DNA from: a virus
Lineage: Duplodnaviria; Caudoviricetes
Virus record (IMG/VR): IMGVR_UViG_3300036783_000247
Coordinates: 1-25,963 of that record
Reading direction: 5' to 3' (one strand)
DNA length: 25,963 nt
This document shows, in pieces, positions 1-24,836 of the stretch. The translations under genes and the position numbers were made by a program. The stretch's first letter is position 1; every line of letters begins with the position of its first letter. The notes beneath the pieces were generated by a model, which was not told where the DNA came from, did no database searches, and saw only the letters and a list, made by a program, of their open reading frames with translations.

Positions 1-494
1 CCTTGAGCTGCGGTTTTCGGCTTGGCCCGTGGCGAGTCCGAGGGGATGTACGCTGACTCGTCGCGGCGGCTGAACGTGCGCATCGCGAACCGCTCGATCT
101 TCTCCGGCTCGGACCAGTCGACCTCGAAGAGCCCCTTGACGAGGGGCGAGTCCTTGCTCAGCAGGTAGATGCGGTTCCAGCCGGCCGCGCCGGACTCAAC
201 CACGCAGGGGCGCACCCGGATGTAGCCGGCGCGCTCCAGCCGGTCGAGCGACTCGCGAACGGTGCGCAAGGTCGTCATGGCGAAGATCGCCAGGTCCTCG
301 TTGCCGATCAGCGCGTCCCACGTCTTCTCGCTGGCCTCGTCGCCGATGCCGATCAGCACGAGCTTGTCGGTCGCCGATGGGGAGGGCTCCGACTCGACGC
401 GCTGCGACGAGCCGCCGCCGGGCGGCTTCTTCTGTCTGACGGTGGACGTGATCACCGTCTGGTCTTTTGCCCACACCAACGTGCGGAGGGACAT
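1..494 (-). CDS. Helix-turn-helix protein resembling phage replication initiators (HTH_36-like N-terminus), 3' end outside the window
   Basis: Not in the ORF track; my translation from ATG 494 (GAGGA RBS upstream): MSLRTLVWAKDQ...TDKLVLIGIGDEA...DLAIFAMTTLRTVRESLDRLERAGYIRV...GWNRIYLL. The frame is open to position 1. The pattern MS..WA/KLVL/TV..L..LE..G.I/N.Y.L is typical of phage replication-protein wHTH domains. Confidence 0.7.
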   Translation of the reverse strand, partial: MSLRTLVWAKDQTVITSTVRQKKPPGGGSSQRVESEPSPSATDKLVLIGIGDEASEKTWDALIGNEDLAIFAMTTLRTVRESLDRLERAGYIRVRPCVVESGAAGWNRIYLLSKDSPLVKGLFEVDWSEPEKIERFAMRTFSRRDESAYIPSDSPRAKPKTAAQ

Positions 495-602
495 GGTTTG
501 GTCCTCTCAGCACACGCGTGTCCCATGGACGGCGCATAGGCGCGCCAGTACACTGGGAGACGTCGCGTGCAGGTCGTGGAGTCCGTGCTGCGACACCTCG
601 TC

Positions 603-630
603 CGGGCCCGGAGTCCCCACTCCGGGCCCG
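603..630. terminator. 12-bp hairpin downstream of the GNAT gene
   Basis: CGGGCCCGGAGT-cccc-ACTCCGGGCCCG perfect inverted repeat; no clear U-tract. Confidence 0.45.
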
Positions 631-670
631 TGGTGTGTCGGGGGCAGTGTGCCCCGTCGATCTTGTTTGG

Positions 671-1234
671 TCACTCACCCCCGCCCGGCGTGTCCGGTGA
701 TGGCGAGGTGGAAATCAGCCCGGTGGACCGTTGAAAGCACACCGCTGACGGAGTGTGGTGCCCCTCGACGGTGCGTACGAACTCGAATCCCCTCGCCACA
801 TAACTAGCCCACAACCCGGCCGCCCGAGGGCTAGTCCAGGCGTCAAGTCTCAGCCACGTGTAACCACGACCGGCGGCAAATCCGGCCGCGAAATCCAGCA
901 AGCGGTCACCAACCCCTCGCGACTGCGGTCGCGCAAAGTCCCGAGTGAGTCGGTGGATGAACAACGCCTCCCGCTCCTCCTTCTCCGTCCACAAGCCGTG
1001 ATCTGTTCTGGAATTTAGTGTCACCATTCCTAGAATTCGATAGTCCGAATCCTGATAAAGCCAGGTTTCTCCGTTTTCAAGCGCGCGTGCGAAGCCGGCG
1101 ATCATGGTTTCCCGGTCAGGAAAGTCATACTGCCACTGGTCCGATCCGCGAGCGGCGAGCCACGTTTTCGCCTGGTCACGCAGGCGTATGACCTCATCAA
1201 GGTCATGTAGCCCTCCCTGTCGAAACGGAATCAC
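671..1234 (-). CDS. GNAT family N-acetyltransferase
   Basis: Motif-A-like 'LFIHRLTRDFARPQSRGVGDRLLDFA', then 'WLRLDAW' and 'YVARGF'; its start overlaps the GntR stop (GTGA). Confidence 0.85.
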   Translation of the reverse strand: MIPFRQGGLHDLDEVIRLRDQAKTWLAARGSDQWQYDFPDRETMIAGFARALENGETWLYQDSDYRILGMVTLNSRTDHGLWTEKEEREALFIHRLTRDFARPQSRGVGDRLLDFAAGFAAGRGYTWLRLDAWTSPRAAGLWASYVARGFEFVRTVEGHHTPSAVCFQRSTGLISTSPSPDTPGGGE

Positions 1235-2028
1235 GCGCCGTCCATTCCCTGAATCCGAAGAATTACGCTGATGTCGCCCGCGCGATAGGCGATGGTGTTG
1301 CGGTCAGGAGGCAGTAGTTCGCGCGTGTACCGCACGATTCGGTCCTGAGTGCAGGCAACCCTCCTGTACACCAGGATCCACGTCCCCTTGGCCATCCTGA
1401 ACAGGCTCTGCTCCTGTTCGTGGGTCGGCCGAGTATCGACCCGGTCGTCCCATCCCACCTCGGCGTGACCATGGGCCGCCATGCGCGCCACGGTTCCCTC
1501 GGGAATGTCGTCTGCGGTGTCGAGGCCGCACGACCTGGCGAATTCGTAGGGGTAGTAGCTCACCTGCTCGGACCAGGGGAACTCGTCGATATAGCGGGTG
1601 CACTCGCGGACAACAACAAGTTCGCGCGGAGCGATGTTGAGGCGCCTGGCGACGCTATCTTCGGCGGCCACGATTTGAAATGCGAAATCCTGGGTCGGGG
1701 TATGGCCCAGCTCCAGCACTTCCGAATGCCAGGTATCGGTGGTGCCCTGCCGCGTGGGGTTCTCGCGGTGCGCGTCGTGCACCAGTGTTGGCAGCCTGCG
1801 CACGAAGGTCCCGCTGCGCCCCTTGGTGATGAGCAACCCCTCGGCAGCCAGTACGCCAAGCGCCTCGCGGATCGTGCCTCGACTGGCCCTGTAGCGGCCC
1901 GCGAGCGCCACCTCCGATGGCAACTGGGCGCCAGACACTAGCTCAACGCCCAGCAGTGTGGCCTCCCCCAGGATCGCGTCCCGTAGCTCGTCCGCGATCG
2001 CGCGGTGGCGGGCTGTAACTCCCACCAA
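1231..2028 (-). CDS. GntR-family (HutC/UTRA) repressor, KorSA/TraR-like
   Basis: wHTH 'GAQLPSEVALAGRYRASRGTIREALGVLAAEGLL...GRSGTFV' plus a UTRA-like C-domain; AGGAGG RBS at 2032-2037 (true start may be GTG 2025); divergent from the transfer operon, as in actinomycete plasmids and AICEs. Confidence 0.92.
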   Translation of the reverse strand: MVGVTARHRAIADELRDAILGEATLLGVELVSGAQLPSEVALAGRYRASRGTIREALGVLAAEGLLITKGRSGTFVRRLPTLVHDAHRENPTRQGTTDTWHSEVLELGHTPTQDFAFQIVAAEDSVARRLNIAPRELVVVRECTRYIDEFPWSEQVSYYPYEFARSCGLDTADDIPEGTVARMAAHGHAEVGWDDRVDTRPTHEQEQSLFRMAKGTWILVYRRVACTQDRIVRYTRELLPPDRNTIAYRAGDISVILRIQGMDGA

Positions 2029-2047
2029 GCACCTCCTCTGATCCGGT

Positions 2048-2124
2048 TGGTCTGATCAAGCTACCCCAAGACCCCTTGACAAGACCAGAGCTGACGCTAG
2101 TCTTAGCGCCGTAAGTACAGACCA
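2048..2124. promoter_or_regulatory. Rightward promoter of the transfer operon overlapped by putative GntR operators
   Basis: TTGACA (2076-2081), 16 nt, TAGTCT (2098-2103). Related boxes TGGTCTGATCAA (2048-2059), TTGACAAGACCA (2076-2087) and AAGTACAGACCA (2113-2124) resemble HutC-type TGGTCTAGACCA operators. Confidence 0.65.
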
Positions 2125-2173
2125 GAGAGGCCACGCAGACCAGCGAGGCCAAGCCGTCAAGAAGGAGTTGATC

Positions 2174-2461
2174 GTGGTCGATAGCCGTGACGATCCCCTC
2201 GCTGACCTGCGGGGACCGACGCGGGACGAGTTGGCCGCGATCGAGCAGGAAGCAGTGCTGGACCAGTTCGAGCTCGCACTGCTGGACATGGAGATCGCCG
2301 AAGCCGGACGGCGTCACATCGCTGCCGTCAACGCCGAGGGGTACGCGGCACGGCAGCAGCACAGAGCCGCGCTACTGACCCTCCAGTTGCTCAGAACGGC
2401 TCCACAGGCACGGCTGGCGCGGTGCTGGCCCGATCGAGAACTTCCAGGGAGGACAGCGTGA
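2174..2461 (+). CDS. DUF6284-like small protein, first gene of the transfer operon
   Basis: 'GPTRDELAAIEQEAVLDQFELALLDMEI' resembles the PT.AEL.AIE.E...E..LLD..I motif of AICE first genes; AAGGAG RBS before GTG 2174. Confidence 0.6.
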   Translation: MVDSRDDPLADLRGPTRDELAAIEQEAVLDQFELALLDMEIAEAGRRHIAAVNAEGYAARQQHRAALLTLQLLRTAPQARLARCWPDRELPGRTA

Positions 2462-2907
2462 CCAGCGAGAACCCCGCCGACCTCGACGGTCTGTGGCCGC
2501 TCCCCACCCTCTGCAGTGGCCCGCGCCCCGGCTGGGTCCGCACGCGGCGCAACAACGGCACCTGGGGCCTGACCTGCGTAAATAGCACTGAAAACGGACA
2601 GAACGGACGCTCTGTGAGCGACGACGACCTGTGCACCGCCCCCGGCCAGCTCACCATCGACGACGCCTCGGCGGCGTCCTATGAGGACGTGGCCGCCGCC
2701 GAGATCGCCGACAAGCTGGTGCAGGCGATCCTCCGCGGCGAGCGGCCGGCGCTGCCATGCACTGGCACCGTCGAGGCCGACGAGCTCACCGTGGCGTGGG
2801 GCCGGCTCGCCCGCGAGGGTCGCAAGGTCGGCCTCTCCCTCGTGAAGGACCCGTCGCCCCTCTGGGCGCAGGTGGCCGACGTCAGCCAGTTCGGAGCCGA
2901 GCGATGA
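2458..2907 (+). CDS. Hypothetical protein (149 aa)
   Basis: GGAGG RBS, GTGA coupling to the upstream gene, high GC3. Confidence 0.65.
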   Translation: MTSENPADLDGLWPLPTLCSGPRPGWVRTRRNNGTWGLTCVNSTENGQNGRSVSDDDLCTAPGQLTIDDASAASYEDVAAAEIADKLVQAILRGERPALPCTGTVEADELTVAWGRLAREGRKVGLSLVKDPSPLWAQVADVSQFGAER

Positions 2908-3191
2908 CCCACTCGCCGAGCAAGCCGGGTGACCCGGAGCGCCTGCCGCAGCAGACGACCAAGGAGTGGATCGAGGCCAACGGCACGACCGGCCCGATCA
3001 ACGCGCCGAGCCACTGGCGCGAGAGCCTCGGCCTCCGCCGCACCCGTCGCCGCCGGCCGTCGCAGGCGGTGCAGCTCGACATCGTCACGACCCTGGCCGA
3101 GATCGACGACACGCCGCCCTCGGGCGAGGAGTCCCGCACCACGTGCGGCACGATCGGCACCTCCCCCCGCACCACCACCGAGGAGTGCTGA
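2904..3191 (+). CDS. Hypothetical protein (95 aa)
   Basis: ATGA coupling; ends just before the next start. Confidence 0.55.
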   Translation: MTHSPSKPGDPERLPQQTTKEWIEANGTTGPINAPSHWRESLGLRRTRRRRPSQAVQLDIVTTLAEIDDTPPSGEESRTTCGTIGTSPRTTTEEC

Positions 3192-3193
3192 CC

Positions 3194-4831
3194 GTGGCGA
3201 TCTCCCTCTTTCCCCCCCGCATGGTCGTCGTCAACGGCAAGCCGATGACCCGCGCCGGCGTTCGCGACGTGGAGCGACAGAAGCTCCTCATTGAGCGCGA
3301 AAAGGCGGACATCATGCTGAGCAAGCAGCGCGACGTCGCCGCGGCCGAGGTCGCAGCAGCCGAGGCCATCGCCGAAAAAGCGCGCCTGGAACTCGCGGAC
3401 GTGCAGGCCGTTCACGACGCGAAGCGTGCCGTCGTCACGAAGTCGGAAACGACCGAGTCTGAGCGCAAGAAGTCGAAGGAGCGGGTGAAGCGCAGCCGGC
3501 GCAACAACGTCGGAATGGTCGTGGCCCTGTGTGCCGCCATCGAATTCGCCGGCCAGGTGATCTTCTTCTTCGGATACCTCGACAATTGGCCGCAGCAATT
3601 GCTTCCTCTGCTTTTCCTGGCGCCCTTCATTGTCCCGATCTTCACATGGGGCTTCGGCAGGGATGCGTACCTGCGCGCCAAGGACAAGGTCCCGTACGCC
3701 AAGTCGATGATGGTGATGTGGATCTCCGCGTTCGCGGCCGCCGCGATGATCACGTTCGAGCTGACGCTCATCCTGAGGATTCCCGGGCTGCCGGAATTCT
3801 TCGGCGCTGCGTCCATTGCGGGCCCCGCGATGTTCCACTGGCACGTGGGCAGCGTTTCGCAGGACGCACACGAGATTTCAGCGATCGACCGCGCGAAGAT
3901 GATCGCCCGAAAGTGGGCGAACCGCTTGCGGCACCCGTTCATCTGGTGGGGAGCGGTCGATCTTTACCACTCCAGCGTGGGCGTCATCGACTACGAGCAC
4001 GCATGGCTGATGGTCTACCGCCAGAAGAAGGGGCACCTGCCGGGCATGCTGCCGGTCTACGTCCCGGACGTTCAGGTACGTCGGCTGCGCTGGCTGCGCA
4101 AGCTGCTGGACCGCCTCGTGTTCGCCACGAGCAACGGTGTGAGCAACGGGCGAGTGAGCAACGGCGCGAGCAACGCGACGCCGGGGCGCCACGCGATCGA
4201 AGCCCCGGCAACGAGCAACGCCGTTGCTCCTGGCGTTGCTCAGGAGGCGTTGCTCCCGGCCGTTGAGCAACGGCCCGTCGTTGCTCCGCCGGAGTCCGAT
4301 GCGGAGATCACGGCCCCGATGAGCCCGTTGCTCGACGAGGTCTCCGCCTGGCTGGAGGGCAAGGGTACGGGCGTTGCTCACGCCGATGTGGCGGCCGGCC
4401 TGCGGGAGGTCACCGCGTTGCTGGAGACGCGTAACCCCAGGTCGCAGGGCGTTGCTCAGCAAGCAACGAGCAACGGTGTGAGCAACGACGCTCCGGCCAG
4501 CAACGGTGTGAGCAACGGGTCGACAAGCAACGACATGAGCAACACGAAGGCCGAGAGCAACGTCCGTCGACTGTTGAGGCGGCGACCGGAGCAACGGTCG
4601 AGCAACGCGCCGGCGAGCAACGTTCCCGCCTCGCAGTTGGTCCGCGAGTGGATGGACAAGAAGATCGCGAGCAACGTGCCGCTGGACCAGATCTTCGGCA
4701 GCGACGCCATGGCGGCGGTCAACCCGCTGCTCGTCAAGGCGGGGCGCGAGGAGGTCACTCGACAGGCCGCTGACAACGCCGTCAGGAACTACCGCAAGCA
4801 GTTGCAGAAGAAGCAGCGCCGCGAGGCGTAG
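3194..4831 (+). CDS. Spd-like (plasmid spread) membrane protein: coiled coil, about 4 TM helices, low-complexity C-terminal part
   Basis: GAGGAG RBS before GTG 3194; Ala/Glu/Lys-rich helix, four hydrophobic segments, then an SN/VA-rich tract; located in the tra operon. Confidence 0.7.
   Translation: MAISLFPPRMVVVNGKPMTRAGVRDVERQKLLIEREKADIMLSKQRDVAAAEVAAAEAIAEKARLELADVQAVHDAKRAVVTKSETTESERKKSKERVKRSRRNNVGMVVALCAAIEFAGQVIFFFGYLDNWPQQLLPLLFLAPFIVPIFTWGFGRDAYLRAKDKVPYAKSMMVMWISAFAAAAMITFELTLILRIPGLPEFFGAASIAGPAMFHWHVGSVSQDAHEISAIDRAKMIARKWANRLRHPFIWWGAVDLYHSSVGVIDYEHAWLMVYRQKKGHLPGMLPVYVPDVQVRRLRWLRKLLDRLVFATSNGVSNGRVSNGASNATPGRHAIEAPATSNAVAPGVAQEALLPAVEQRPVVAPPESDAEITAPMSPLLDEVSAWLEGKGTGVAHADVAAGLREVTALLETRNPRSQGVAQQATSNGVSNDAPASNGVSNGSTSNDMSNTKAESNVRRLLRRRPEQRSSNAPASNVPASQLVREWMDKKIASNVPLDQIFGSDAMAAVNPLLVKAGREEVTRQAADNAVRNYRKQLQKKQRREA
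4129..4676. repeat. Array of the 8-bp repeat GAGCAACG in both orientations; candidate clt / TraB recognition sequences
   Basis: 14 forward copies (4129, 4141, 4156, 4168, 4213, 4265, 4468, 4480, 4510, 4555, 4589, 4600, 4615, 4669) and 7 reverse copies CGTTGCTC (4222, 4234, 4248, 4279, 4326, 4372, 4450), plus 1-mismatch copies. Confidence 0.85.
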
Positions 4832-4841
4832 CGAAAGACCC

Positions 4842-4885
4842 CCGGGTGGGCGGCTGTTGACTTCCCGGTCCCGCCGCCCACCCGG
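4842..4885. terminator. 13-bp stem hairpin after the Spd-like gene
   Basis: CCGGGTGGGCGGC...GCCGCCCACCCGG perfect inverted repeat, 18-nt loop. Confidence 0.5.
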
Positions 4886-4930
4886 ACACCACCCGCAACG
4901 TTCGATCAACGAAGGGGCGAGGAGCCCATC

Positions 4931-5452
4931 ATGGCAGACTCCACTACGCTCAACTCGACTACAGAGCGTGAGGTCCACACTCCGCACTCCACACCGGAGA
5001 GTGTGCGGGTCGGGAAGAGCGACCAGGGGTTTTCGGCCGCCGGCGGGCCCAAAACTCCACACTCCGCACTCACGGAGAGTGACGAGCGGCCGTCGCGGGT
5101 GCTCGCGGTCCTGGACTGGCTGAAGGAGCGCAACCTCGTCCCGCCGGGTTTCGCGACCGAGCCGATGCCGTCCCTGGTGGAGGTCATCGAGCACGTCCGG
5201 CAGACCGCTGAGGCCAAGACCGACTCGCCCTGGGGACGCGCCTTCCGGATGGCCTGGGCCTACCTGGTCGGCATCCCCACGACCTGCCTGGGCTACTTGC
5301 TGGCCTGGTCGTCCTGGTTCGCCGCGCGCCTGCTGTTCGTCACGCTCGTCTCCATGTCCGTGATGTCGCTGCTGCAGTGGATTCCCCTCGTGCACTGGCT
5401 GCTCGCCTGGATGAGCTACCCCTACTGGTGGCACCGCCTCACCGGCTGGTAA
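4931..5452 (+). CDS. Membrane protein of the transfer operon (Spd-like)
   Basis: GAGGAG RBS; C-terminal Trp-rich hydrophobic segments. Confidence 0.7.
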   Translation: MADSTTLNSTTEREVHTPHSTPESVRVGKSDQGFSAAGGPKTPHSALTESDERPSRVLAVLDWLKERNLVPPGFATEPMPSLVEVIEHVRQTAEAKTDSPWGRAFRMAWAYLVGIPTTCLGYLLAWSSWFAARLLFVTLVSMSVMSLLQWIPLVHWLLAWMSYPYWWHRLTGW

Positions 5453-5506
5453 TCACCGCCGCAACGTCAACCAATCAACAGCTCGAAAGGGAAAGAGGAA
5501 AGAGAA

Positions 5507-5959
5507 ATGAACTACGCGGCCATCGGCTCGGGAATCATGAGCGGCGTGCTGAGCATCGTGGCGGGCTGGTTCTACTTCCGTCACAAGAAGGACTCCAAGC
5601 TCACCATCATCCTGTTTGGCCTGGTCGGCATGCTGGGCGTCGGATCCCTCTGGGCGGGCATCGCCGCCGCCGTGCACAACACCGAGATGGGCATCGCCCA
5701 CGGCCTCGGCGGCGCACTCGGCGGCGCCTCGGCCGGCATCGTGATCGGCATCTCGGTCATCGCCTGCCTGGAGATCTTCTGGAAAGCGCTGCACCGCAGC
5801 GGTCAGCCGAAGAAGTGGCACCCCTGGGTCGCACTGATCCTCGGCATCGTGATGTCGGCGTCCGGCGTCGGCCTGTTCACCAGCTTCAAGGACACGGTCA
5901 CCTCCATTGCCACCCAGGTCGGCCAGGACACGATGGGCGCCGGCGGCTCCGGCCAGTAA
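5507..5959 (+). CDS. Integral membrane protein, about 4 TM (Spd-like)
   Basis: Four Gly-rich hydrophobic stretches; purine-rich RBS region; high GC3. Confidence 0.75.
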   Translation: MNYAAIGSGIMSGVLSIVAGWFYFRHKKDSKLTIILFGLVGMLGVGSLWAGIAAAVHNTEMGIAHGLGGALGGASAGIVIGISVIACLEIFWKALHRSGQPKKWHPWVALILGIVMSASGVGLFTSFKDTVTSIATQVGQDTMGAGGSGQ

Positions 5960-6002
5960 TCAGTAGCAGGAACTGTTACCCAGTGAGGGGCGGGTAGTTC
6001 AC

Positions 6003-7079
6003 ATGGGCACCACAGGATCCATGGGCTCGGTGGTCACGCTGATGATCGTCGCATGGCTCATCATGAGGCCCGGCCGCGCCCTGTACAACGCGATCAAGGG
6101 CAACGACCCGGAGCAGTCGCGCACGGCAATTGACCGCGCTATCGATTACATCGTGGAAGAGGCCGGCGGCAGTTTCGTCGGCAATGCACACATCGGCGGT
6201 CGCACCTTAGGTGCCATCAAGAGGCTGTTCGGCGGCGGGAAGAACACCGCGCCGTCGGACAGCGGAGGGACACCCGCCTCCACCGCCCCTGGCGGCGCAA
6301 CGCCGCCGGCCGGGGGCACGCCCGGCCCCAGTCCGGCCCCGACCTCGGTCGGCGGGGGCGGGGGCGGGGGTGGGGGTGGCGACACGACCACCGGCGGGGG
6401 CGGAAGCGGGGATACCGAGGGGGACACCCCCGGCGGCGCCCGACCCGAGGAGATCGACCCCACCGGCGGGGGAGACACCCCCGACCCGACCGGCCCGACA
6501 CCCGGCGGCGGCCAGGTCCCGCCGGGTGACCCCACCGGTGACCCCGCCGGTGGCGGCGCAACGACAGTCGACTGGGGCGCCTGGGCCGCCCTGCTGGACG
6601 ACGACGATCCGCCTCGCGTCGTCCAGGCAACAGCAGAACGGTTATGGCCCGAACCGACCCCACCGGCGGGCTTGCCGCCTGCACCACCGAAGGCCCTCGA
6701 AGGGTCATCGACCGAAGGGAGCACCACCATGACCGCCATCGCCACCACCGGCGCCACCACCGGCGCCATCACCGTGGCCACCGACAGCGCCAGTCCCGAG
6801 ATCACCAAGAAGATCGGCTCGCAGTTCGACGTCGTGCTGGGCAGGGCCATCGGCCTGCTCGACCAGTACGAAGGCGCGCTGCGGAGCAGGAGCGAGACGA
6901 TCGGCGGCGAGACGATGGCGCAGATCGCCCAGATGAAGCAGGGCTTGGCCATCGCCAAGGCCGCCGCGACCAAGCTCGCCCACCGCGGCGCCGTCCAGGC
7001 CCGGGCCGCCGAGCCGGTGCGCAACGTTGACGACGTCCAGCTGCCGGCCAACAGCTACTACGCCGGCAACGCCCGCTGA
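6003..7079 (+). CDS. Membrane-anchored Pro/Gly/Thr-rich protein preceding traB (possibly TraA-like)
   Basis: N-terminal TM, long P/G/T/D linker, helical C-domain ending 'PANSYYAGNAR'; immediately upstream of traB. Confidence 0.7.
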   Translation: MGTTGSMGSVVTLMIVAWLIMRPGRALYNAIKGNDPEQSRTAIDRAIDYIVEEAGGSFVGNAHIGGRTLGAIKRLFGGGKNTAPSDSGGTPASTAPGGATPPAGGTPGPSPAPTSVGGGGGGGGGGDTTTGGGGSGDTEGDTPGGARPEEIDPTGGGDTPDPTGPTPGGGQVPPGDPTGDPAGGGATTVDWGAWAALLDDDDPPRVVQATAERLWPEPTPPAGLPPAPPKALEGSSTEGSTTMTAIATTGATTGAITVATDSASPEITKKIGSQFDVVLGRAIGLLDQYEGALRSRSETIGGETMAQIAQMKQGLAIAKAAATKLAHRGAVQARAAEPVRNVDDVQLPANSYYAGNAR

Positions 7080-7085
7080 TTGCCC

Positions 7086-7124
7086 GGCCGGTTGAGCCGG
7101 CCTTCCCCTCCGGCTCAACCGGCC
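7086..7124. terminator. 15-bp stem hairpin directly upstream of traB
   Basis: GGCCGGTTGAGCCGG-ccttcccct-CCGGCTCAACCGGCC. Confidence 0.5.
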
Positions 7125-7149
7125 ATCCCCAACCTCCGGGAGTCACAGC

Positions 7150-9426
7150 ATGACCGCCACCGTCACCACGGACGAGCAGCAGACCGAGCAGCAGGCCGCC
7201 GCCGCGCCGGTCGAGTCGCCGATGGACCCCGTCCAGCTGGCCAAGGATCAGGCGCTCGCAGCGCAGCGCGAGGCCAAGAAAGAGGAGCGCGCGGCCCAGC
7301 GGACGGCCCTGCGCCTGCCGCACATCCTGGCCGCAGGCACCTCCGCCGTCGGCATGGTGTCGTGGGGGATCGGCGAGGCCGTCAGCGCGGCCGGCGGCTC
7401 CGCCGGCCTCGTCACCCTCGGCGTTGCGGCCATCAGCAGCGCTGTCGTCGGCGGTGCGTGGCTGCGACGCAACAAGATCGAGGCGCTCGACGAGCGCTGG
7501 AAGAACGTCGCCCTCTCGGCCGGCGTCGCCGCCTCCGGACTAATCACCCTGGATTCCGTGTACGGCGCGACGTGGGGAACCCTCGCGGCGACGATTGTCG
7601 CCGAAGCCACGTTAGGCCGGGCCTGGCGGCGCGAGCACAGCATTCCGCTGGAGCGAATCGCAGCCCCCGAAGCCCGGGCCCGCGGCGGCTGGAGGCTTCT
7701 CCTGCCGCGCCGAAAGGCGAGCCGCGATGACGCGACCCAGGTCGAGCCCGAGCGCTCCCCGGTCGTTGTCGTCAACGACGAGCCGGACAACCTCATCGCC
7801 GACGTCATGCGGATGTGGCGCGAGAACATCTCGCGGCCCGGCGGCGTGCTGCCCGGTTCGGAACTGCTTGAGCCCACCAAGCGACCGACCGGCGCTCGCT
7901 TCATCATCCAGACGATTCCAGGCAGTTGCCAGTACTCGGACCTCGACGGCATTCGCGGCCGCCTCGCGGCCGGCCTGTTCCGGCAGATCCGAGACCTTCA
8001 CCCGGAGCCGTACCCCGGCAATGAGTCCCGCGCCTACCTGACCATCACCAAACAGCGAGTTCTGCAGCAGACGTCCCCCTATCAGGGCCCCATCTACCGG
8101 GACGGTGTCATCCCGGTCGGCCAACTGTCCAACGGGTCCGGCGAAGCCACCATCGTGGTAAAGGACCGCACCGGCGTGTACCCGACCCTGATCACAGGAG
8201 CACCCGGTTCCGGCAAGAGCACCTCCGGCCTACTCCCCATCTCCCTAGCCCTCAAGCACTCCGGCGAATTTCTCCTCGTGCACTGCGACGGCGACCCCGA
8301 AGGCGGCAGCTCACCCGAAATGAACGAGCTGTCCGACGCCCGACCGGGCGCGGGCCCCGAAGACGCCTACAAGCAGCTCCTCGCGATCGAGGAAACGCTG
8401 CAGGTGCGCGGCATGAACAAGAGGCTCCTCACCGAGGACCCGCTCACCGGACTGCCGCTGCCGCTGCTTGACCCGGAAACGCAGCGGGTCGCCTCGAAGA
8501 TCCTGCCGTGCGCACAGTTCCCCGGCCTCGCCTGGTCGATCGACGAGTTCTACAGGCTGTCGAAAGACCAGTGGCTGCGAAGCATGGGGTTCGGGGAACG
8601 CCTGGAACAGGTCATCCGGCTCGGACGCAAATACGGAGTCCTCGTCAACCTGGCCACACACAGCGTGCTGGTCGGAGACTACTTCGACTCGACGTCACTG
8701 CGCGGCCTGCTGGCCAACCGCAACTTCATGGTGTTCCGCAACACGAACAAGACCGAGTCCGACCTGGTCGGCGAGGTACAGGTCAGGCCCGGCGAGCTGC
8801 CGCCGGGCGGCGGCTACTTCTTGATAGCCAGCGCGGGCGGCTCACAGCTGCAGGCCCGCGGTGGCGAGGTCACGGGCGTGCGGGAGTGGGCGCACGCCCT
8901 GCCCGGCGCGCAGGCCGACCCCGACATGGCTGAGGCGCTGAAGCCGCTGACAGTCACCGCCGATTTCGACCCCATCCAGGCCGTGCGGGAGGCCAAGGCG
9001 AACCTGGCCGAGTGGCGGGCCCGCAAGCAGGCCGGCGTCGAGGGCAAGAAGGTGGAGCCCGACGGCTACGAGCAGTACGGCGAGATGGCCGACCTGCACC
9101 GCCTGCTCGACCCGATGCCCGAGCTCACCCTGATTCAGGGCGGCGGCGAAGAGGCGCTGTCGATCACCCAGCTGAAGATGCTCGCGGCGCTTCCCGGAAA
9201 GAACGCGCACGTCGCCCAGCGCGTGGGCGTGTCGGTCAGCTACGTGGAGAAGCAGCTGCCGAAGCTGGTAGCCCTCGGCCTGGCCGTGCAGCCCGAGAAG
9301 TTCGGCCCCTACCAGCGCACGCCAGCCGGCGACAAGGCCGTCACCGAGGCCGCCGGCGAGCTCGACGCGGAAGCCGATCGAGACCTGACCGACGTCGCGC
9401 ACGACCTGGACCAGGTCGCCAACTAA
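7150..9426 (+). CDS. traB: FtsK/SpoIIIE-family conjugative DNA translocase (actinomycete Tra/TraB)
   Basis: N-terminal TM helices; Walker A GAPGSGKS; 'DGDPEGGSSPE'; Walker B WSIDEF; 'RLGRKYGVLVNLATH'; C-terminal wHTH 'LSITQLKMLAAL...HVAQRVGVSVSYVEKQLPKLVALGLA'. Confidence 0.88.
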   Translation: MTATVTTDEQQTEQQAAAAPVESPMDPVQLAKDQALAAQREAKKEERAAQRTALRLPHILAAGTSAVGMVSWGIGEAVSAAGGSAGLVTLGVAAISSAVVGGAWLRRNKIEALDERWKNVALSAGVAASGLITLDSVYGATWGTLAATIVAEATLGRAWRREHSIPLERIAAPEARARGGWRLLLPRRKASRDDATQVEPERSPVVVVNDEPDNLIADVMRMWRENISRPGGVLPGSELLEPTKRPTGARFIIQTIPGSCQYSDLDGIRGRLAAGLFRQIRDLHPEPYPGNESRAYLTITKQRVLQQTSPYQGPIYRDGVIPVGQLSNGSGEATIVVKDRTGVYPTLITGAPGSGKSTSGLLPISLALKHSGEFLLVHCDGDPEGGSSPEMNELSDARPGAGPEDAYKQLLAIEETLQVRGMNKRLLTEDPLTGLPLPLLDPETQRVASKILPCAQFPGLAWSIDEFYRLSKDQWLRSMGFGERLEQVIRLGRKYGVLVNLATHSVLVGDYFDSTSLRGLLANRNFMVFRNTNKTESDLVGEVQVRPGELPPGGGYFLIASAGGSQLQARGGEVTGVREWAHALPGAQADPDMAEALKPLTVTADFDPIQAVREAKANLAEWRARKQAGVEGKKVEPDGYEQYGEMADLHRLLDPMPELTLIQGGGEEALSITQLKMLAALPGKNAHVAQRVGVSVSYVEKQLPKLVALGLAVQPEKFGPYQRTPAGDKAVTEAAGELDAEADRDLTDVAHDLDQVAN

Positions 9427-10199: not shown

Positions 10200-10574
10200 G
10201 TGCCCGCGCAGCGCAATCACGACTGGGACTGGTACGACCACGTCGCCGTCGACCGCGTCATGACCGGAGCCGACCCCGGCCGAGAGCTCACGCATGCCGA
10301 GCGGGTCGAGTGCGCGCGGCGGGCGCTCGCGCGGGGCGGCAGCGCGGACAGCGTGGACAAGCTGGTCGGCTTCGGCGCACGGCACGCGTACAAGCTCGTC
10401 GCGGAGGTCGAGACCGGCACCTGCTTCATCAGGCTCCAGCAGTGCGCCTACATCGGCTGCGCCGTGGAGTTCCGAACCCAGGACCCGCGAGCCAGCTTTT
10501 GCTCCGGCCCGTGCAGGGAACGCTCCCGCGAGCGCCGTACCCACGCCACCAGTCGCGCCGCCTCGGCAGCCTGA
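10200..10574 (+). CDS. HTH plus Zn-finger putative DNA-binding protein
   Basis: AGGAGG RBS; 'DHVAVDRVMTG...LTHAER' and an HTH-like segment; C-terminal CAYIGC...F...FCSGPCR. Confidence 0.7.
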   Translation: MPAQRNHDWDWYDHVAVDRVMTGADPGRELTHAERVECARRALARGGSADSVDKLVGFGARHAYKLVAEVETGTCFIRLQQCAYIGCAVEFRTQDPRASFCSGPCRERSRERRTHATSRAASAA

Positions 10575-14480: not shown

Positions 14481-15203
14481 GTGGCGATCACCATCGCGCA
14501 AACCCTCACCGCCCAGAGCGCCATCGGCGGCGACAGCACCGCCCTCACCGCCGCCCTCACCTCCGTCGCCGCCAACGACGTCGTCATCGTCATGGCCCAA
14601 ACCTGGGACACCGCCACCGCCGCCGGCACCCCCTCCGGCGGCTCCCAGACCTACACCCGCCGCGCCACCTCCGCGCCCGCCATCTTCGCCGGCTACGCAA
14701 CCTGCTTCAGCGCCACCATGGCCGCCGGCGTCGCATCCAGCTTCACCCTCACCCTGAGCGCGCCCGCCGCCAGCAGCGGGCACAGCATGGTCGTCTACCG
14801 CGTCACCGGCGGCCAACTCGCCGCCACCCCCGCCACCAACTCCGCCGACTACGGCGGCACCGCCGGCGCGCCGAGCTCCACCATCACCGCCACCGGCAAC
14901 GGCAACTTGCTCTTCTGGTGCACCAACGACGCCCAGTCCATCAACCCCAGCACCGACGCCTACATCAGCCCCGCCCCCGGCACCCCGGACCTCCTGGTCG
15001 ACGGCCACACCGGCTCGGACGGCGTCTTCCGCTACACCCACCAAACCGCCAGCGGCGCCACCTCGCAGACCTACGGCCAGACCGCACCCACCGGCCAGAA
15101 ATGGGTCGCGGTCGCCATCGAAGTCCAAGCCGCCGCAGCAACGTTCATCGCGCCCCCCGCACCCAACGTCAGGCAGGCCATCCGCCGAGCCTCCCTCTAC
15201 TAA
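14481..15203 (+). CDS. Thr/Ala/Gly-rich beta-rich virion-like protein
   Basis: Composition typical of phage fibre/decoration domains; basic C-terminal tail 'APNVRQAIRRASLY'. Confidence 0.7.
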   Translation: MAITIAQTLTAQSAIGGDSTALTAALTSVAANDVVIVMAQTWDTATAAGTPSGGSQTYTRRATSAPAIFAGYATCFSATMAAGVASSFTLTLSAPAASSGHSMVVYRVTGGQLAATPATNSADYGGTAGAPSSTITATGNGNLLFWCTNDAQSINPSTDAYISPAPGTPDLLVDGHTGSDGVFRYTHQTASGATSQTYGQTAPTGQKWVAVAIEVQAAAATFIAPPAPNVRQAIRRASLY

Positions 15204-15217
15204 GGAGGTCGGGCCCC

Positions 15218-15706
15218 GTGGCCACCCTGTACTGGGCACACAACGGCGCAGCCCCCACCACCGCCGCTGCCGTGAAGGTCACCACCGGCACCGCGATCAA
15301 GACCCTGCTGCAGGTCGCCACGCCGTCCACCATGCGCATCAAGGTCGTCGAATGGGGCATCAGCTTCGACGGCAGCGCGGCGGCCACGCCGATCGAGTGC
15401 GAGCTCATCCAAACCGACGTCGCCGCCACCGTCACCAGCTTCACCCCGCAGGCCTACGACGACCCCAACGGGCCCGCCAGCCTCTGCGTCGGCGGCACCT
15501 CCGCCACCGGCTACACCGCCACCGCCGAAGGCACCATCACCGCCACCCGCTACGGCGACCTGCAGCTGATCGCGCCAACCAACCAGTACGTCAAGCAGTT
15601 CCCGCTCGGCCGCGAGTTCCAGGTGCCGGTCAGCAAGTTCCTGCGCGTACGCGTGACCGCGGGTGCTGCCGTGTCGGCGTACACCTATATCTGCTGGGAG
15701 GAGTAG
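15218..15706 (+). CDS. Putative virion structural protein (162 aa)
   Basis: AAGGAGG RBS, GTG 15218; beta-sandwich-like, ends 'FLRVRVTAGAAVSAYTYICWEE'. Confidence 0.7.
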   Translation: MATLYWAHNGAAPTTAAAVKVTTGTAIKTLLQVATPSTMRIKVVEWGISFDGSAAATPIECELIQTDVAATVTSFTPQAYDDPNGPASLCVGGTSATGYTATAEGTITATRYGDLQLIAPTNQYVKQFPLGREFQVPVSKFLRVRVTAGAAVSAYTYICWEE

Positions 15707-15708
15707 GC

Positions 15709-16023
15709 GTGACCGCCGAGCAGCCCGGCGCGCCTGCCGATTCCGCGGCGTCCACAACGGACGCAGTCTCCAGCGCCGAGGTCCGCCACGTCATCATCCG
15801 CGCCTGCACCACATGCGGCGCACGACGGCAGCCCGACGAACCGTGCACCGGCTGCGGCAACGAGAACCCGCCAGTGGTCGACGACCTCGGCATCGTCACC
15901 GCGGTGTACCGCGACCCCGTTCGGCGAGCGGTCTGGCGCCTGGTGCGCAAACCCCTGGCTGACCGCCGAATCCGGCGCGCGAACGCGCGCGCATCACAGC
16001 TGCAGCGCACACGCGAGGAGTGA
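15709..16023 (+). CDS. Small Zn-ribbon protein (104 aa)
   Basis: GGAGGAG RBS; CTTC...CTGC; Arg-rich C-terminus. Confidence 0.65.
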   Translation: MTAEQPGAPADSAASTTDAVSSAEVRHVIIRACTTCGARRQPDEPCTGCGNENPPVVDDLGIVTAVYRDPVRRAVWRLVRKPLADRRIRRANARASQLQRTREE

Positions 16024-16029
16024 TTTGCG

Positions 16030-16683: not shown

Positions 16684-16741
16684 TTTACCGGATCTGCGCT
16701 AAACAGAGGTGCGAACCGACCCCTGAGCAATCAAGGGGGCC

Positions 16742-20184: not shown

Positions 20185-20204
20185 CGCGCGGGGAGGTGGT
20201 CCCC

Positions 20205-20660
20205 GTGGGGCGTCTTCCCGCCAGCCTCGACCGGCAGACCAAGGCGGTCGCGCTGCGGCTGGCCGGCTTGGACTTTCAGGCGATCGCCAGCCAGCTCGGC
20301 TACTCCAACCGCGGTCAGGCCGTGGCTGATGTGCAGAAGGCGATCTCGGCTCGTGTTGAGGACGGCACGCGGTCGATCGACGAGTTGCGGGAGATCGAGC
20401 TGCTGCGGTTGGACCGGTTGCAGGCGGCGACGTGGTCGACGGCGTTGTCCGGCGATCACAAGGCGATCGACCAGACGCTGAAGATCATCGATCGGCGTTG
20501 CAAGCTGCTCGGTCTGGATGCGCCGGAGCGTCACGAGGTGGTGACCATTGACTGGCTCGACTCCCAGATCCGAGAACTTCAGGCCGTCATCGCTTCAAGG
20601 CTTGCGGATGCAGCGCCTGCAGCAATTGAAGGCTTTGCAGGACGAGTTGAATCGGATTGA
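20205..20660 (+). CDS. terS: Terminase small subunit (HTH type)
   Basis: GGGAGG RBS, GTG 20205; 'AVALRLAGLDFQAIASQLGY...ELLRLDRLQ...LKIIDRRCKLLGLDAP'; overlaps terL. Confidence 0.75.
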   Translation: MGRLPASLDRQTKAVALRLAGLDFQAIASQLGYSNRGQAVADVQKAISARVEDGTRSIDELREIELLRLDRLQAATWSTALSGDHKAIDQTLKIIDRRCKLLGLDAPERHEVVTIDWLDSQIRELQAVIASRLADAAPAAIEGFAGRVESD

Positions 20661-22164
20661 GGCGCGCCGTCTGTCCCAGGTGGACGTGTTCGGGTCGCTG
20701 GAGTATGAGCCGACGCCGCGGCAGCAGGAGTTCCACGACGCAACCGAGTTCGACACGCTTTTCGGGGGCGCGGCCGGCGGCGGCAAGACCAAGGCGCTTG
20801 TCATGCATGCGATCCGGGAGTGCGTGCGCTACCCGGGGATCCGTGTCGGCGCGTTCCGCCGCACCTACGGCGAGCTGAAGGAGTCGCTGCTCGCGGAGCT
20901 CGCGTTGACCGGCTACGCCAAGGCGTTGGACGCGGTGTGGAAGGGCAGCGACTACGAGCTGCGCTTCCCCAACGGCAGCCTGATCATGTTCCGCTACGCC
21001 GAGACCATGGCCGACGCGACCCGCCGCCTGGGCGGTCAGTACCAGCTGCTGCTGTTCGACGAGCGCACGTTGACCAACCCCGACGTCGTGTCCTTTCTGG
21101 AGTCCCGCATGCGGTCCGGCCGCGCGGACATCCCTGTGCTCGGCATCCGCAGCGCCACGAACCCGGGCGGCCCGGGCCACACCGCGGTCAAGGACCGTTA
21201 CATCAAGCCGACGAACTACGGCGAGAAGGTCATCATCGACCAGCGTGGCCGCGAGGTCCGCTTCATTCCGTCGAAGCTCACGGACAACCCGCACGTCAAT
21301 GCCGAGTACGCCTCGGACCTGCTGGCGCTGCCGGAGAAGCTCCGCGCGGCCTATTTGGACGGCGACTGGGATGTGTTCGCCGGCCAGATGTTTCCGGAGT
21401 GGTCCCGCGACCGGCATGTGGTCGCACCGCGGCAGCTGCCGGCGACGTGGCGGCGGTACGCCGGCGTCGACTGGGGTTACGCCGCGCCGTGGGCCGTGGT
21501 GTGGGCGGCGGTCGACGAGGACGGTCGGGTGTGGGTGTACCGGGAGGCCTACGCGAAAGAGGTCGGCGAGGCCGACCAGGCCCGACGGATCCTCGCCGCC
21601 GAGAACGGCGAGTACGTCACCGCCCGCTACGCCGACGATGCGATGTGGGCCACCCGCGGTGACGCGCTGCCGATCGCGCAGGTCTACCAGGAAAACGGAT
21701 GCGCTCTGACGCCAGCCGGCAAGGGCCCGGGAAGCCGTGTCACCGGCTGGCAGCGCATCCACTCCTACCTGGCGGAGGCCCCGGCGTGCCGGGAGCACCG
21801 CGACCTGGGTTGGGAGACCTGCCCGCGGCTGCACGCGTTCAACAACCTGGAGCGGTTCGCCACCGGCATCGCCGACCTGCCGCACTCGCCGACCGGCAAC
21901 CCGGAGGACGCCGACACCCGCGCAGACGACCATGTTGCCGACGCAACTAGGTATCTGTTGATCAACATCGGCGGAGAGGCCCGCTGGCACTTCCCGTCGT
22001 TCGGGCCGGCGCAGCAGACCGGGCCGCGCACGATCGACCCGCAAGCACCCGACCCTGACTCCGCACTGTTGCCGCCGAAGCCGCTACCGACCGAGTACGG
22101 CGGATTCCCCGTGCTCAACCAGTCGGCGAATCCATGGGAGGCGGGCAATCCGTGGGCTGGCTGA
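20608..22164 (+). CDS. terL: Terminase large subunit
   Basis: Q-motif PTPRQQEF; Walker A GGAAGGGKT; Walker B LLLFDE; coupling motif ATNPGGPGH; nuclease GVDWG...DDHVADATRY. Start uncertain (20548 or 20608). Confidence 0.95.
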   Translation: MQRLQQLKALQDELNRIEARRLSQVDVFGSLEYEPTPRQQEFHDATEFDTLFGGAAGGGKTKALVMHAIRECVRYPGIRVGAFRRTYGELKESLLAELALTGYAKALDAVWKGSDYELRFPNGSLIMFRYAETMADATRRLGGQYQLLLFDERTLTNPDVVSFLESRMRSGRADIPVLGIRSATNPGGPGHTAVKDRYIKPTNYGEKVIIDQRGREVRFIPSKLTDNPHVNAEYASDLLALPEKLRAAYLDGDWDVFAGQMFPEWSRDRHVVAPRQLPATWRRYAGVDWGYAAPWAVVWAAVDEDGRVWVYREAYAKEVGEADQARRILAAENGEYVTARYADDAMWATRGDALPIAQVYQENGCALTPAGKGPGSRVTGWQRIHSYLAEAPACREHRDLGWETCPRLHAFNNLERFATGIADLPHSPTGNPEDADTRADDHVADATRYLLINIGGEARWHFPSFGPAQQTGPRTIDPQAPDPDSALLPPKPLPTEYGGFPVLNQSANPWEAGNPWAG

Positions 22165-24836
22165 ATCGCATGTGGACGGCGCTGGGCTCGACCGGCACGC
22201 CGCTGGAGGAAAAGAACGTCGCGGCGCCGGAGGAGCTCAAGCCGCCTAGCGCGGAGCAGGTGCGGCGCACCGGCTACGAGTACGGCATCCCGCTGGCGTC
22301 GATGACCAGCAGCGTACAGGTCGCCGCGTCCAGCGAGCGGCAGCAGATCCTCAACCAGCTCCACCAGCTGTACATGTCCTGCGACTGGGTCAGCTCCGCG
22401 ATCGACGTGATCGCCCGCACCGTCACCGCCGGCGGCCTGCAGGTCGTGTCCGACGCCGATGTCACCGAAGGCGACATCATGGACGACCCGCCGCCGGTGG
22501 TACGGCTCAAGCGGTTGGCGCGCTACACGAACCCGCGCGAGGACATGATCCAACTGCTGCGCGGGGTGCTGATCGACCTGCTGCTGTTCGGCGACGCGTA
22601 CCTTGAAGTGGTGACGCTGCTGGACGAGCCGGTCGCGCTCTACAGTCTGGACGCCACCACGATGACGGTGATCGCCGACCAGCACGGCGAAGTTTTGGGG
22701 TACAGCCAGGATGTCGATGGCGTCCGCTCGGCGGACTTCACGCCCGACCAGGTCATCCACTTCAGCCTCGACGCACCGCGCGGCGGCCTGTACGGGGTGA
22801 GCCCGGCCCAGAAGGCACTTCTGCCGGCCACGGCATGGCTGTTCACCATGGCCACACTCAAGGAATGTTTCCGGCGCGGCGACCCGCCGCGGGTGCATGT
22901 GGACCTGGGGCACTACAACGACACCGACATCCAGAAGTGGCGCGAGCAGTACACGGTGTACAACCTGGGTCCGAAGAGCGTCGGCGCGCCGCTGATCACC
23001 ACCGGCGGCGGCGTCGTGCAGGTGCTGGACCCCCGCAAGGTCGTCGACTACCTCGACACCGCGCGGCAGCTGCGCGACGAGATCGTGAGTGCGTTCGGTG
23101 TGCCGCCGTCGAAGTTGGGCATCATCGAGACCGGCAACCTTGGTGGCGGTACAGCAGAGGGTCAGGATAAGTCGTTCAGGGTCAACACGGTCATCCCGAT
23201 CGGGAACCTCATCCTGGAGAAGTTGAACTTCCACCTGCTTCAGCAGGGGTTCGGGATCTACAACTACCACCTGACGTTCGCCGAGATCGACTTCCGCGAC
23301 TCCAAGATCGTCGAGGAAATCCGGGACATCCGGCTGCGCAATGGATCGTACTGCGTCGACGAGGAGACGGAGATTCTCACCTCGGCCGGCTGGAAGCACT
23401 ACGACACGCTTCAGGCTGGCGACGCAGTGCTGACGCTCAACCATCAGACCGGCGAGTCGGAGTGGCAGCCGTGCCAGGAGGTGTGCGTCTTCCCGGCGGA
23501 TCGGCGCGAGATGGTACGCACGCGCGTGCGCGGGCACTCGTCACTGACGACGCCTAACCATCGGTGGCCGGTGGTGCGCTACAACCTTGCCGCCCGCGAG
23601 TGGCGCCGCGTGTGGACAACCAGCGAACGCCAGACCGTGTGGGACCGCGTGCTGCGTGCCGCACCGCGGGCCGACTGCCCGGTTGAGGCGGTGCACGAGG
23701 ACGCTTTCGTCGAGCTGGTGGCCTGGTTCTGGACCGAGGGGCACGCACCGGCACGCAATCGATTCGTGACAATCTGTCAGAAAAAGCCGGAGGGTGTAGA
23801 GCGCATCCGCGCTGCCCTGGAAAAGCTGTTCGGACCGCCTTACGAGCAGTCGAAGTACCACCGTACGTCGGATCCAGGCTGCTGGATCGAACGACTGCAG
23901 GGCAACGACGGGAAGCGTAGCTTCCGCATCGCCGCGTCACACGGGCAGCTGTTCCGCGATGTCGTGGCCGACCATGTCGTCAGCACCGAGTTCCTGATGT
24001 CGCTGACACAGCGGCAACTCGACCTGTTCATCGAAGTCTCGCTGATGGCAGACGGTGACAACAGCGTGTCAGGGCAGGCCAAGCTGGGCCAGAAGAGGCG
24101 GGAGGCCGCCGAGCAGTTCCAGCTGGCCTGCATCCTGTCTGGCCGCTCGGCAACCATCACAGAGCGCGTGTTCGCGCGTGACGGCTACCGCATGTGGATG
24201 GTCAACGTCGACAAGGTCGGCTCGGTTATGCCGAAGAAGGCCGTCAAGACCGGGTCTGGCGCGGTTATGGAGACCGTGACACACAACGGGATTGTGTGGT
24301 GCCCGCGCACTCCGAATCAGAGCTGGATGGCCCGACGTGACGGCACCGTGTACTTCACGGGAAACACCCTCAACCGCTACCGCGACGAGATCGGGGAGCC
24401 TCCGGTGCCCGGCGGCGACGTCGCGATCATCGTCGACCGCACCGGTTCCCTCGCGTGGGATGACGTCGAGGCGATGTCCAAGGCCAACGTCGCCTACCGC
24501 GTCGCCCCGCTCACCCAGGCCGGCGTCAACGGCTACGTGCCCGGCGTGCCTGACCCGGAAGAGGAGCCGGCGACCGATCTCGGCCCCGACCACACGCCGG
24601 TGCGCCGCGGCGACCCGGGCCTGCCGCCGCCGGCCAAGACCGACGACCGCAAGCCCGGCGCCAAGCAGGACCCCACCGCGGTGCCCGGCGGCAGCAAGGA
24701 CGCCACGCAGGGCAAGGCGCCCAAGGAGGACGCCGCCCAGCGGGACAACCGCCGACTGACCGAGGCGTGGCAGAAGGCCTACCGGGCACGACGCGCCCAG
24801 GCGCTGCGCGAGCTGCCGAAGGAGGACGTGGCGTGA
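22152..24836 (+). CDS. HK97-family portal protein containing an intein (about 556 aa after splicing)
   Basis: 'SAIDVIARTV', 'DLLLFGDAY', 'DQVIHF', 'GLYGVSP', 'IVSAFGVPPSKLG', and NGSY|TLNRYR rejoined across the insert; follows terL. Confidence 0.92.
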   Translation: MGWLNRMWTALGSTGTPLEEKNVAAPEELKPPSAEQVRRTGYEYGIPLASMTSSVQVAASSERQQILNQLHQLYMSCDWVSSAIDVIARTVTAGGLQVVSDADVTEGDIMDDPPPVVRLKRLARYTNPREDMIQLLRGVLIDLLLFGDAYLEVVTLLDEPVALYSLDATTMTVIADQHGEVLGYSQDVDGVRSADFTPDQVIHFSLDAPRGGLYGVSPAQKALLPATAWLFTMATLKECFRRGDPPRVHVDLGHYNDTDIQKWREQYTVYNLGPKSVGAPLITTGGGVVQVLDPRKVVDYLDTARQLRDEIVSAFGVPPSKLGIIETGNLGGGTAEGQDKSFRVNTVIPIGNLILEKLNFHLLQQGFGIYNYHLTFAEIDFRDSKIVEEIRDIRLRNGSYCVDEETEILTSAGWKHYDTLQAGDAVLTLNHQTGESEWQPCQEVCVFPADRREMVRTRVRGHSSLTTPNHRWPVVRYNLAAREWRRVWTTSERQTVWDRVLRAAPRADCPVEAVHEDAFVELVAWFWTEGHAPARNRFVTICQKKPEGVERIRAALEKLFGPPYEQSKYHRTSDPGCWIERLQGNDGKRSFRIAASHGQLFRDVVADHVVSTEFLMSLTQRQLDLFIEVSLMADGDNSVSGQAKLGQKRREAAEQFQLACILSGRSATITERVFARDGYRMWMVNVDKVGSVMPKKAVKTGSGAVMETVTHNGIVWCPRTPNQSWMARRDGTVYFTGNTLNRYRDEIGEPPVPGGDVAIIVDRTGSLAWDDVEAMSKANVAYRVAPLTQAGVNGYVPGVPDPEEEPATDLGPDHTPVRRGDPGLPPPAKTDDRKPGAKQDPTAVPGGSKDATQGKAPKEDAAQRDNRRLTEAWQKAYRARRAQALRELPKEDVA
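23352..24365 (+). mobile_element. Intein with LAGLIDADG-type homing endonuclease (338 aa)
   Basis: Block A CVDEETEILT; block B TTPNHRW; endonuclease blocks ELVAWFWTEG and EVSLMADG; block F VWCPRT; C-terminus YFTGN followed by Thr(+1). Confidence 0.92.

Follow-up and report, generated by a model that had tools for sequence, protein, structure and literature searches.

An octamer array inside a DUF2637/SpdB-like gene as candidate binding sites for the encoded protein's own C-terminal tail

A predicted membrane protein gene on a phage record carries, within its own codons, a dense array of the octamer GAGCAACG, and we consider it fairly probable, from comparison of sequences, that these copies are candidate binding sites for the C-terminal tail of the same protein. 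A fuller model, in which the gene would hold a self-encoded docking array for its own predicted tail and would tether the DNA of the element at the membrane, seems to us nearly evenly poised and leaning towards acceptance. The 25,963-bp stretch of DNA analysed here (the window) comes from an IMG/VR linear virus fragment that is about 36% complete. The sequencing runs that match it are soil metagenomes, and its host organism is probably an actinomycete, because of the plasmid relatives of its transfer module.

The octamer array and the constraint on its DNA

An exact-match count over the whole window finds 21 copies of GAGCAACG, 14 on the plus strand and 7 on the minus strand. All of them are confined to positions 4129-4676, and this recount gives the same copy number and 548-bp span as the original prediction, whose proposed count across the element, run here on the window, returns 0 copies in the rest of the 25,963 bp. 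Dinucleotide shuffles of the window (n = 100) contain 1.26 copies on average and 5 at most; the claim that chance would supply far below one copy holds within the 548 bp and fails for the whole window, where about 1.3 copies are expected. The array consists of a first block of five forward copies (4129-4220), a middle block (4222-4457) of seven reverse copies together with one forward copy at 4265, and a last block of eight forward copies (4468-4676), so that the rough forward, reverse, forward order noted earlier is seen apart from the one forward copy in the middle block. The GCAAC core occurs 27 times in 4100-4700, with the consensus (C/T)GAGCAACG and an irregular spacing of 7-54 bp.

No other word of the window clusters nearly as strongly as GAGCAACG (-log10 P 44.7, versus 7.8 for the runner-up). 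In a background set of 178 other loci, which comprises loci of at least 3 kb from DNA pattern scans plus some plasmid loci and is biased towards GAGCAACG, the richest 8-mer cluster counted in both orientations has 14 copies, and 4/178 loci reach at least 9. The matches of those scans, which had been directed at the array, were unrelated loci, used as the background set only. The array is not an assembly artefact, because contigs with zero differences are present in two runs, covering 3092-4844 in run X2 and 4026-4388 in run X3; run X1 is a possible source of the record and so does not count as independent confirmation. Run X3 also holds a second contig with many differences at about 4000-4115, over the start of the array, which may be a divergent relative or a chance match. 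Beyond the array, each of the two genes that follow is preceded by one intergenic GCAACG core, at 4895 and 5461; these may be weak sites or chance occurrences.

The constraint in the array segment lies on the DNA, not on the protein. The octamer is read as S-N (AGC AAC) 12 times, as E-Q-R twice, as V-A (GTT GCT) five times and as L-L (TTG CTC) twice, four readings that bear out the earlier claim of reading in different frames. We resampled the codons of the 190-residue segment 20,000 times with the protein fixed, using background codons from 13 genes of the window, and obtained GAGCAACG 1.49 times on average, compared with the 21 copies observed. The constraint is assigned to the DNA because this resampling yields at most 8 copies. 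Shuffling of the segment's own synonymous codons gave a mean of 6.13 and a maximum of 13. All 15 S-N pairs are written AGC AAC, and AGC is found in 1/7 of the remaining serines of the segment (28% in background codon use). The recourse to rare codons noted earlier is likewise observed, in that five of the six V-A pairs are written GTT GCT despite background frequencies of 7% for GTT and 4% for GCT.

The array might instead have no binding function, having arisen as a side effect of selection for the S-N peptide or of local duplication, tolerated by the linker. A duplicated block does exist (4130-4193 versus 4499-4562, 75% alike), the linker is disordered, and an array is missing from 15/19 related loci. 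Such an origin would nevertheless have to produce four readings on two strands with one codon choice each, spacers that diverge while the word stays exact, a GCAAC core that survives in homologues with linkers 26-57% identical, and more copies than the 14 of the best cluster in 178 other loci; we regard it as highly improbable and as the least credible of the explanations considered here.

The host protein and its close homologues

The gene that contains the array (3194..4831, plus strand; start GTG 3194 or ATG 3221) is DUF2637/SpdB-like, and a 13-bp inverted repeat, probably terminator-like, follows directly 3' of its stop codon (4842..4885, plus strand). Its product of 540 residues, referred to as P0001, comprises in order a coiled coil, three to four hydrophobic segments, a long disordered linker and a three-helix C-domain. 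The position of the gene, between GntR and tra, and the coiled coil followed by several membrane segments are as in SpdB-like proteins. Hydropathy predicts transmembrane segments at residues 96-120, 125-146 and 162-190 (3506..3790, plus strand). The C-domain (4628..4828, plus strand; about residues 470-536) is modelled by AF2 with a pLDDT of about 88, and its helix 3 starts VTRQAADNAVR. The linker is predicted to be disordered (pLDDT <50), and the array (4129..4676, on both strands) fills the linker codons immediately 5' of the C-domain coding region, with its last copy within that region.

Searches of Pfam and NCBIfam gave no match to the host protein. PF10935 in particular did not match it at E 0.01, and a six-frame search with this profile, whose controls also stayed silent, found none. 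Profile comparison aligns the membrane domain with the DUF2637 protein of plasmid pFP1 (hhalign 96%, E 2.6e-9) and with the corresponding protein of pSROS01 (hhalign 92%, E 5e-7), which itself passes PF10935; these alignments show the membrane domain to be homologous, as judged by sequence, to DUF2637 plasmid proteins. Atlas feature matches to DUF2637 (0.88) are a lead only.

The three-helix C-domain is putatively a helix-turn-helix (HTH) domain. Its structure matches in the Atlas, to HTH_21 and the DUF2637 C-terminus, have TM values of 0.54-0.67, all below the bar, and no usable match came from searching folds with either the full model or a C-domain model of low confidence (pLDDT 59). The hhalign comparisons of the C-domain with other tails are not significant (E 0.02 and 0.22). 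Searched alone against 1.84 billion representatives, the domain finds P0001 and P0003 only, and against plasmids it finds only chance Bradyrhizobium matches.

Only three close homologues are available, P0002, P0003 and P0004, which are 41-58% identical and are represented by protein sequence alone. Searches for their DNA in IMG/VR (with the Tra protein, the alignment A1 and a helix-3 pattern) and in JGI metagenomes found none; a search of GTDB gave one spurious 17-residue match (L008), which was discarded, and alignment A1 run against five whole plasmids found no DNA of a close homologue. We therefore looked, over all frames and both strands, for the 7-mers with which the linker peptides are compatible. 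The words obtained are GAGCAAC for P0003 (27 occurrences versus 3.8 expected), GCAACGT for P0002 (29 versus 2.1) and GCAACAT for P0004 (20 versus 1.3), with z values of 10.6-15.4 compared with a maximum of at most 4.8 in the null. As a control, the method applied to P0001 places the true word at ranks 2 and 4, with a synonymous variant at rank 1.

The GCAAC core is common to all of the inferred words, and it is kept though the linkers of the homologues are only 26-57% identical; helix 3 in all four proteins contains R-Q-(A/G)-A. In P0001 and P0003, both with GAGCAAC, helix 3 is 93% identical, versus 58% for the whole C-domain, and it is 29-43% identical between these two proteins and P0002 or P0004. 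The inferred word thus appears to track helix 3 among the close homologues. Word and helix may also have been co-inherited, because the coil, the linker and the C-domain all group P0001 with P0003.

The membrane segment (residues 91-285) groups the same proteins differently, placing P0001 with P0002 (79%) and P0003 with P0004 (78%), while the rest of the protein groups P0001 with P0003, and the membrane segment alone is likely to have been exchanged among the four. We considered this swap as proof for the HTH and rejected it, as the discordant part is the membrane segment, and coil, linker and tail travel together.

Tra, clt-like clusters and the plasmid relatives

The original prediction had placed a TraB-type gene downstream of the array, and a Tra/TraB-like P-loop ATPase gene is indeed found at 7150..9426 (plus strand), with Walker A (GAPGSGKS) and Walker B motifs, N-terminal hydrophobic segments and a winged-helix-like C-terminal tail. 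Its match to PF01580 covers Walker A only (E 8e-4; 13 bits, with a cut-off of 24), hhalign with an FtsK is not significant, and sequence searches of the PDB gave nothing significant. Relatives show weak matches to FtsK, AAA and MarR/ArsR. The Tra of the window shares 29% identity, across 213 aa, with that of one plasmid locus (L269), annotated as having an FtsK/SpoIIIE domain, and its nearest plasmid relatives, on Pseudonocardia plasmids, are 33-38% identical. Three genes that are conserved on those plasmids separate the host gene from tra on the plus strand, namely a small membrane-type gene (4931..5452), a 150-aa hydrophobic gene kept on relatives (5507..5959) and a 358-aa low-complexity gene directly ahead of tra (6003..7079), apparently in a TraA-like position.

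Under the reading first put forward, the array would be the clt of the element and GAGCAACG the TRS recognized by the winged helix of this Tra, which would load there and pump double-stranded DNA. The length of the word, 8 bp and non-palindromic, is that of the known TRS in two reports (PMC4170104, PMC4447253), and a Tra-like gene with an HTH-like tail lies 2.3 kb downstream. A scan of the window for a second significant word cluster found none, and the gap behind tra, at 24 bp, leaves no room for one. The place of the array is not that of a typical clt, as it is intragenic and lies about 2.3-2.5 kb upstream of tra rather than adjoining it. A clt may lie elsewhere on the element, because the record is only about 36% complete. 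Within the window, the 5' part of the small membrane-type gene contains a duplicated unit of about 25 bp (4974-5081) with five TCC(A/G)CAC words and one reverse CCGCACA, a pJV1-like word; considered as a second clt candidate, this region was set aside as a weak lead only, since its best exact word scores 5.9 and the null 4.6-6.2.

Plasmid relatives provide the comparison. Of 15 plasmid loci, eight (L251, L261, L263, L264, weakly, L266, L268, L269 and L270) have a clt-like cluster immediately behind the tra region, as judged by eye with no null. These clusters have 4-12 copies in non-coding DNA, and all are of mixed orientation. Their words include CCGCACA, TGACACC and GACCCGGA, the last of which we take to be the pSVH1 word. 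The first is the clt word of pJV1 and the second that of pWTY27, according to PMC3583192. No such cluster is present behind tra in the window or in the six loci of the nearest Tra relatives (L001-L005 and L007), and an 8-mer cluster comparable to the array within about 8 kb is found in 0/6 of these loci.

The inverted block of the array had been called unusual, which the relatives contradict, since all eight clt-like clusters and the intragenic arrays compared with them run in both orientations or use a palindromic word. Orientation therefore decides nothing between the two kinds of site; mixed orientation as an argument against clt was dropped, and the likewise mixed clt-like clusters could be cited in favour of that reading.

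An intragenic array ahead of a C-terminal HTH-like segment is strong in 3/19 plasmid loci (L006, L261 and L265) and weak in one (L264), in a survey that omits L253 as a near copy of L251. No such array is seen in 15/19 loci whose membrane gene is similar or syntenic, and pFP1, which ranks among the two best matches by sequence, is one of these 15; the family as a whole thus does not share the array. On pSROS01 (L261), the DUF2637 linker contains 14 CCGTACGG palindromes, and a separate cluster behind the tra region uses CCGCACA, a word unlike the intragenic one; pZL1 (L264) shows this separation less strongly. A second translocase, of FtsK-like type, is also encoded on pSROS01 and is a loophole in the two-word argument, although a palindromic word would presumably give a translocase no direction. 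Behind tra on pSROS01, a stand-alone duplicate of the Tra C-terminal winged-helix region (L261:13716-14216) precedes the CCGCACA cluster, and another CCGCACA cluster, mostly intragenic, lies at 10294-10372. On the Streptosporangium plasmid of L006 (10066-10970), the copies of a GCGGAAC array have forward orientation within a gene for a membrane-plus-HTH protein and reverse orientation in the intergenic stretch that precedes an ftsK gene.

The covariation of word and Tra winged helix, proposed as a check on the clt reading, could be examined in loci indirectly related to the window, consisting of L265 and seven others (L271-L277) picked by eye for spread from the 40 listed of 95 L265-related plasmids. 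The array occupies the 3' part of the membrane gene in all eight of these linear-plasmid loci. Where the word is GAACC (L265 and L271), the HTH is of type A, with tails 74% identical, and where it is CGGACCG (L272-L277), the HTH is of type B, with tails 79-97% identical. Between the Tra of L271 and those of L273 and L277 identity is 76-78%, and it is 84% between the Tra of L265 and that of L275, yet the words differ in each case; conversely, the Tra proteins of L272, L274 and L276 are largely unalignable with the others, and the word is that of L273, L275 and L277. Tra cannot define the word in this family, because Tra identity cuts across the word groups; nor does the word go with either of the two further neighbouring genes that were compared. 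The word is thus independent of Tra in 8/8 loci, which, being related, count as perhaps two or three events. It also follows the membrane domain of the host protein (86% versus 71-75%), so that these loci do not distinguish recognition from physical linkage. Only L261 (tblastn E 8e-3) connects the family with the protein of the window, the direct hhalign comparison giving E 0.13.

Taken against the place of the relatives' clusters (behind tra and non-coding in 8/15 loci), the two array kinds with different words on pSROS01, the independence of the intragenic word from Tra in 8/8 loci and the 0/6 nearest-Tra loci with a comparable cluster, the assignment of GAGCAACG as the TRS of the downstream Tra is disfavoured, and we consider the clt reading unlikely. 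The other ligand named in the original prediction, the C-domain of the host protein, is better supported, in that the intragenic word goes with the host gene and its HTH.

Binding by the C-domain could also serve regulation, by blocking transcription of its own gene and of the transfer genes or by soaking up a toxic excess of Spd or Tra protein. The covariation of word and tail applies equally to this purpose, the sites lie within a transcribed gene upstream of tra, and the arrays of L265 and L006 continue into the intergenic DNA behind the gene. A protein that binds ahead of its own gene is Gbn, with ten GATC sites in that promoter region (PMC9239103); as a relative, Gbn was rejected, because its paper names SpdB2 only as an upregulated gene. 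The likely promoter region of the host gene (2030-3190), however, contains 0 copies, a repressor is already encoded by a divergent GntR-UTRA gene of KorSA/TraR-like type (1231..2028, minus strand), and 21-27 sites over 550 bp for a membrane-anchored protein would seem more like an avidity platform. We judge a regulatory purpose to be quite unlikely.

A different reader might use the sites for partition or replication, be it a ParB-like protein, a nucleoid protein of the host or a product of the 64% of the genome that the record lacks. The window does contain a ParB-like gene, at about 19.3-20.2 kb, and related plasmids have iteron-like clusters of mixed orientation (L268-L270). The placement before a C-terminal HTH-like segment nevertheless recurs in unrelated elements (L006, L261, L264, L265 and L271-L277), and the word goes with the host gene; another reader is, in our estimate, very unlikely.

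A possible docking role and its genomic setting

In the docking model, the protein would insert in the membrane and its predicted HTH tail would read GCAAC and the flanking bases through helix 3. Many membrane-anchored copies would bind the 550-bp array in their own gene, holding the DNA of the element near the Tra pore, at a septum or hyphal contact, for transfer or spreading. Such tethering would be a step separate from the loading of Tra. Gene and sites could be exchanged as one cassette, and tail and sites could change together, giving element-specific words, because both are in one gene.

A precedent for a plasmid protein with sites in its own coding region is SpdA2 with its sps sites on pIJ101, where the sites are likewise visible as a repeated peptide. 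According to PMC4170104, SpdA2 is a 135-aa protein that acts in stability and not in transfer, and its site is a 12-bp palindrome, conserved from plasmid to plasmid and present two to three times. Unlike that system, the window has a 540-aa membrane protein, a non-palindromic 8-bp word in more than 20 copies and words that are element-specific. SpdB2 of pSVH1, by description, and the DUF2637 (PF10935) proteins share with the host protein the coiled coil, the membrane segments, the C-terminal domain and the location between GntR and tra; the host protein differs in having no direct match to PF10935, and the pFP1 gene lacks a strong array. Against specific binding by the tail, SpdB2 of pSVH1 is reported to bind DNA non-specifically (PMC4170104). 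The clt loci of pSVH1, pJV1, pIJ101 and pWTY27 resemble the window in having a cluster of a short element-specific word of 7-9 bp on an element that also encodes a Tra ATPase and a GntR repressor, and their words occur in direct and inverted copies (PMC3583192). They differ in being short, mainly non-coding and next to tra, whereas the array has 21-27 copies in 550 bp and is wholly intragenic. For pSAM2, the accessible portion of PMC9513070 describes no clt. The array is best described as resembling the SpdA2/sps arrangement set in an SpdB/DUF2637-type membrane protein, and we file it neither as clt nor as SpdA. A literature search, which covered few subscription papers, found no description of such intragenic arrays.

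Should the arrays prove to be bound by the proteins whose genes contain them, the way in which Spd proteins hold or move plasmid DNA could be tested directly with a domain of 70 residues and a probe of 550 bp, and the natural specificity variants GAGCAAC, GCAACGT and GCAACAT would serve as controls. SpdB2, the sole membrane Spd protein studied, is reported as binding without specificity. The array is also a clear example of a dense candidate protein-binding array overprinted on coding sequence in four readings, and it cautions against taking every repeat cluster close to traB for a clt. More tentatively, and as a possibility that we would not yet favour, the genes may represent a widespread class of tethers on actinomycete plasmids and phages, with anchor, swappable tail and array in one gene. 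Such a class would amount to a second recognition step in TraB transfer apart from clt, a sequence-specific job for Spd proteins and a tail-to-word code, here on a virion-encoding element that might additionally pass through hyphae without particles.

A plasmid-type transfer module that looks complete (1-9426), and that includes small genes besides those named above, shares the phage record with head-packaging genes (19303-24836), among them those for the terminase large subunit (20548..22164, plus strand) and the portal protein (22134..24836, plus strand). The Streptomyces replicon pZL12, presumably a plasmid-phage, similarly combines head-packaging genes and a Tra module; the Tra of the window differs in belonging to another subfamily, nearest to that of the Pseudonocardia plasmids (33-38%). 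For pZL12, a requirement for tra is given in PMC3583192. A comparison of the Tra of the window with 50,697 GenBank phage records gave no match. Between the transfer module and the terminase gene, at 14481-18909, lie long repetitive genes rich in Thr, Ala and Val (up to 621 aa), probably structural, for which Pfam and PHROG gave no match. The portal protein is interrupted by an insertion of about 338 aa whose ends are intein-like, as called by inspection from a Cys at its start and Gly-Asn at its end, followed by Thr.
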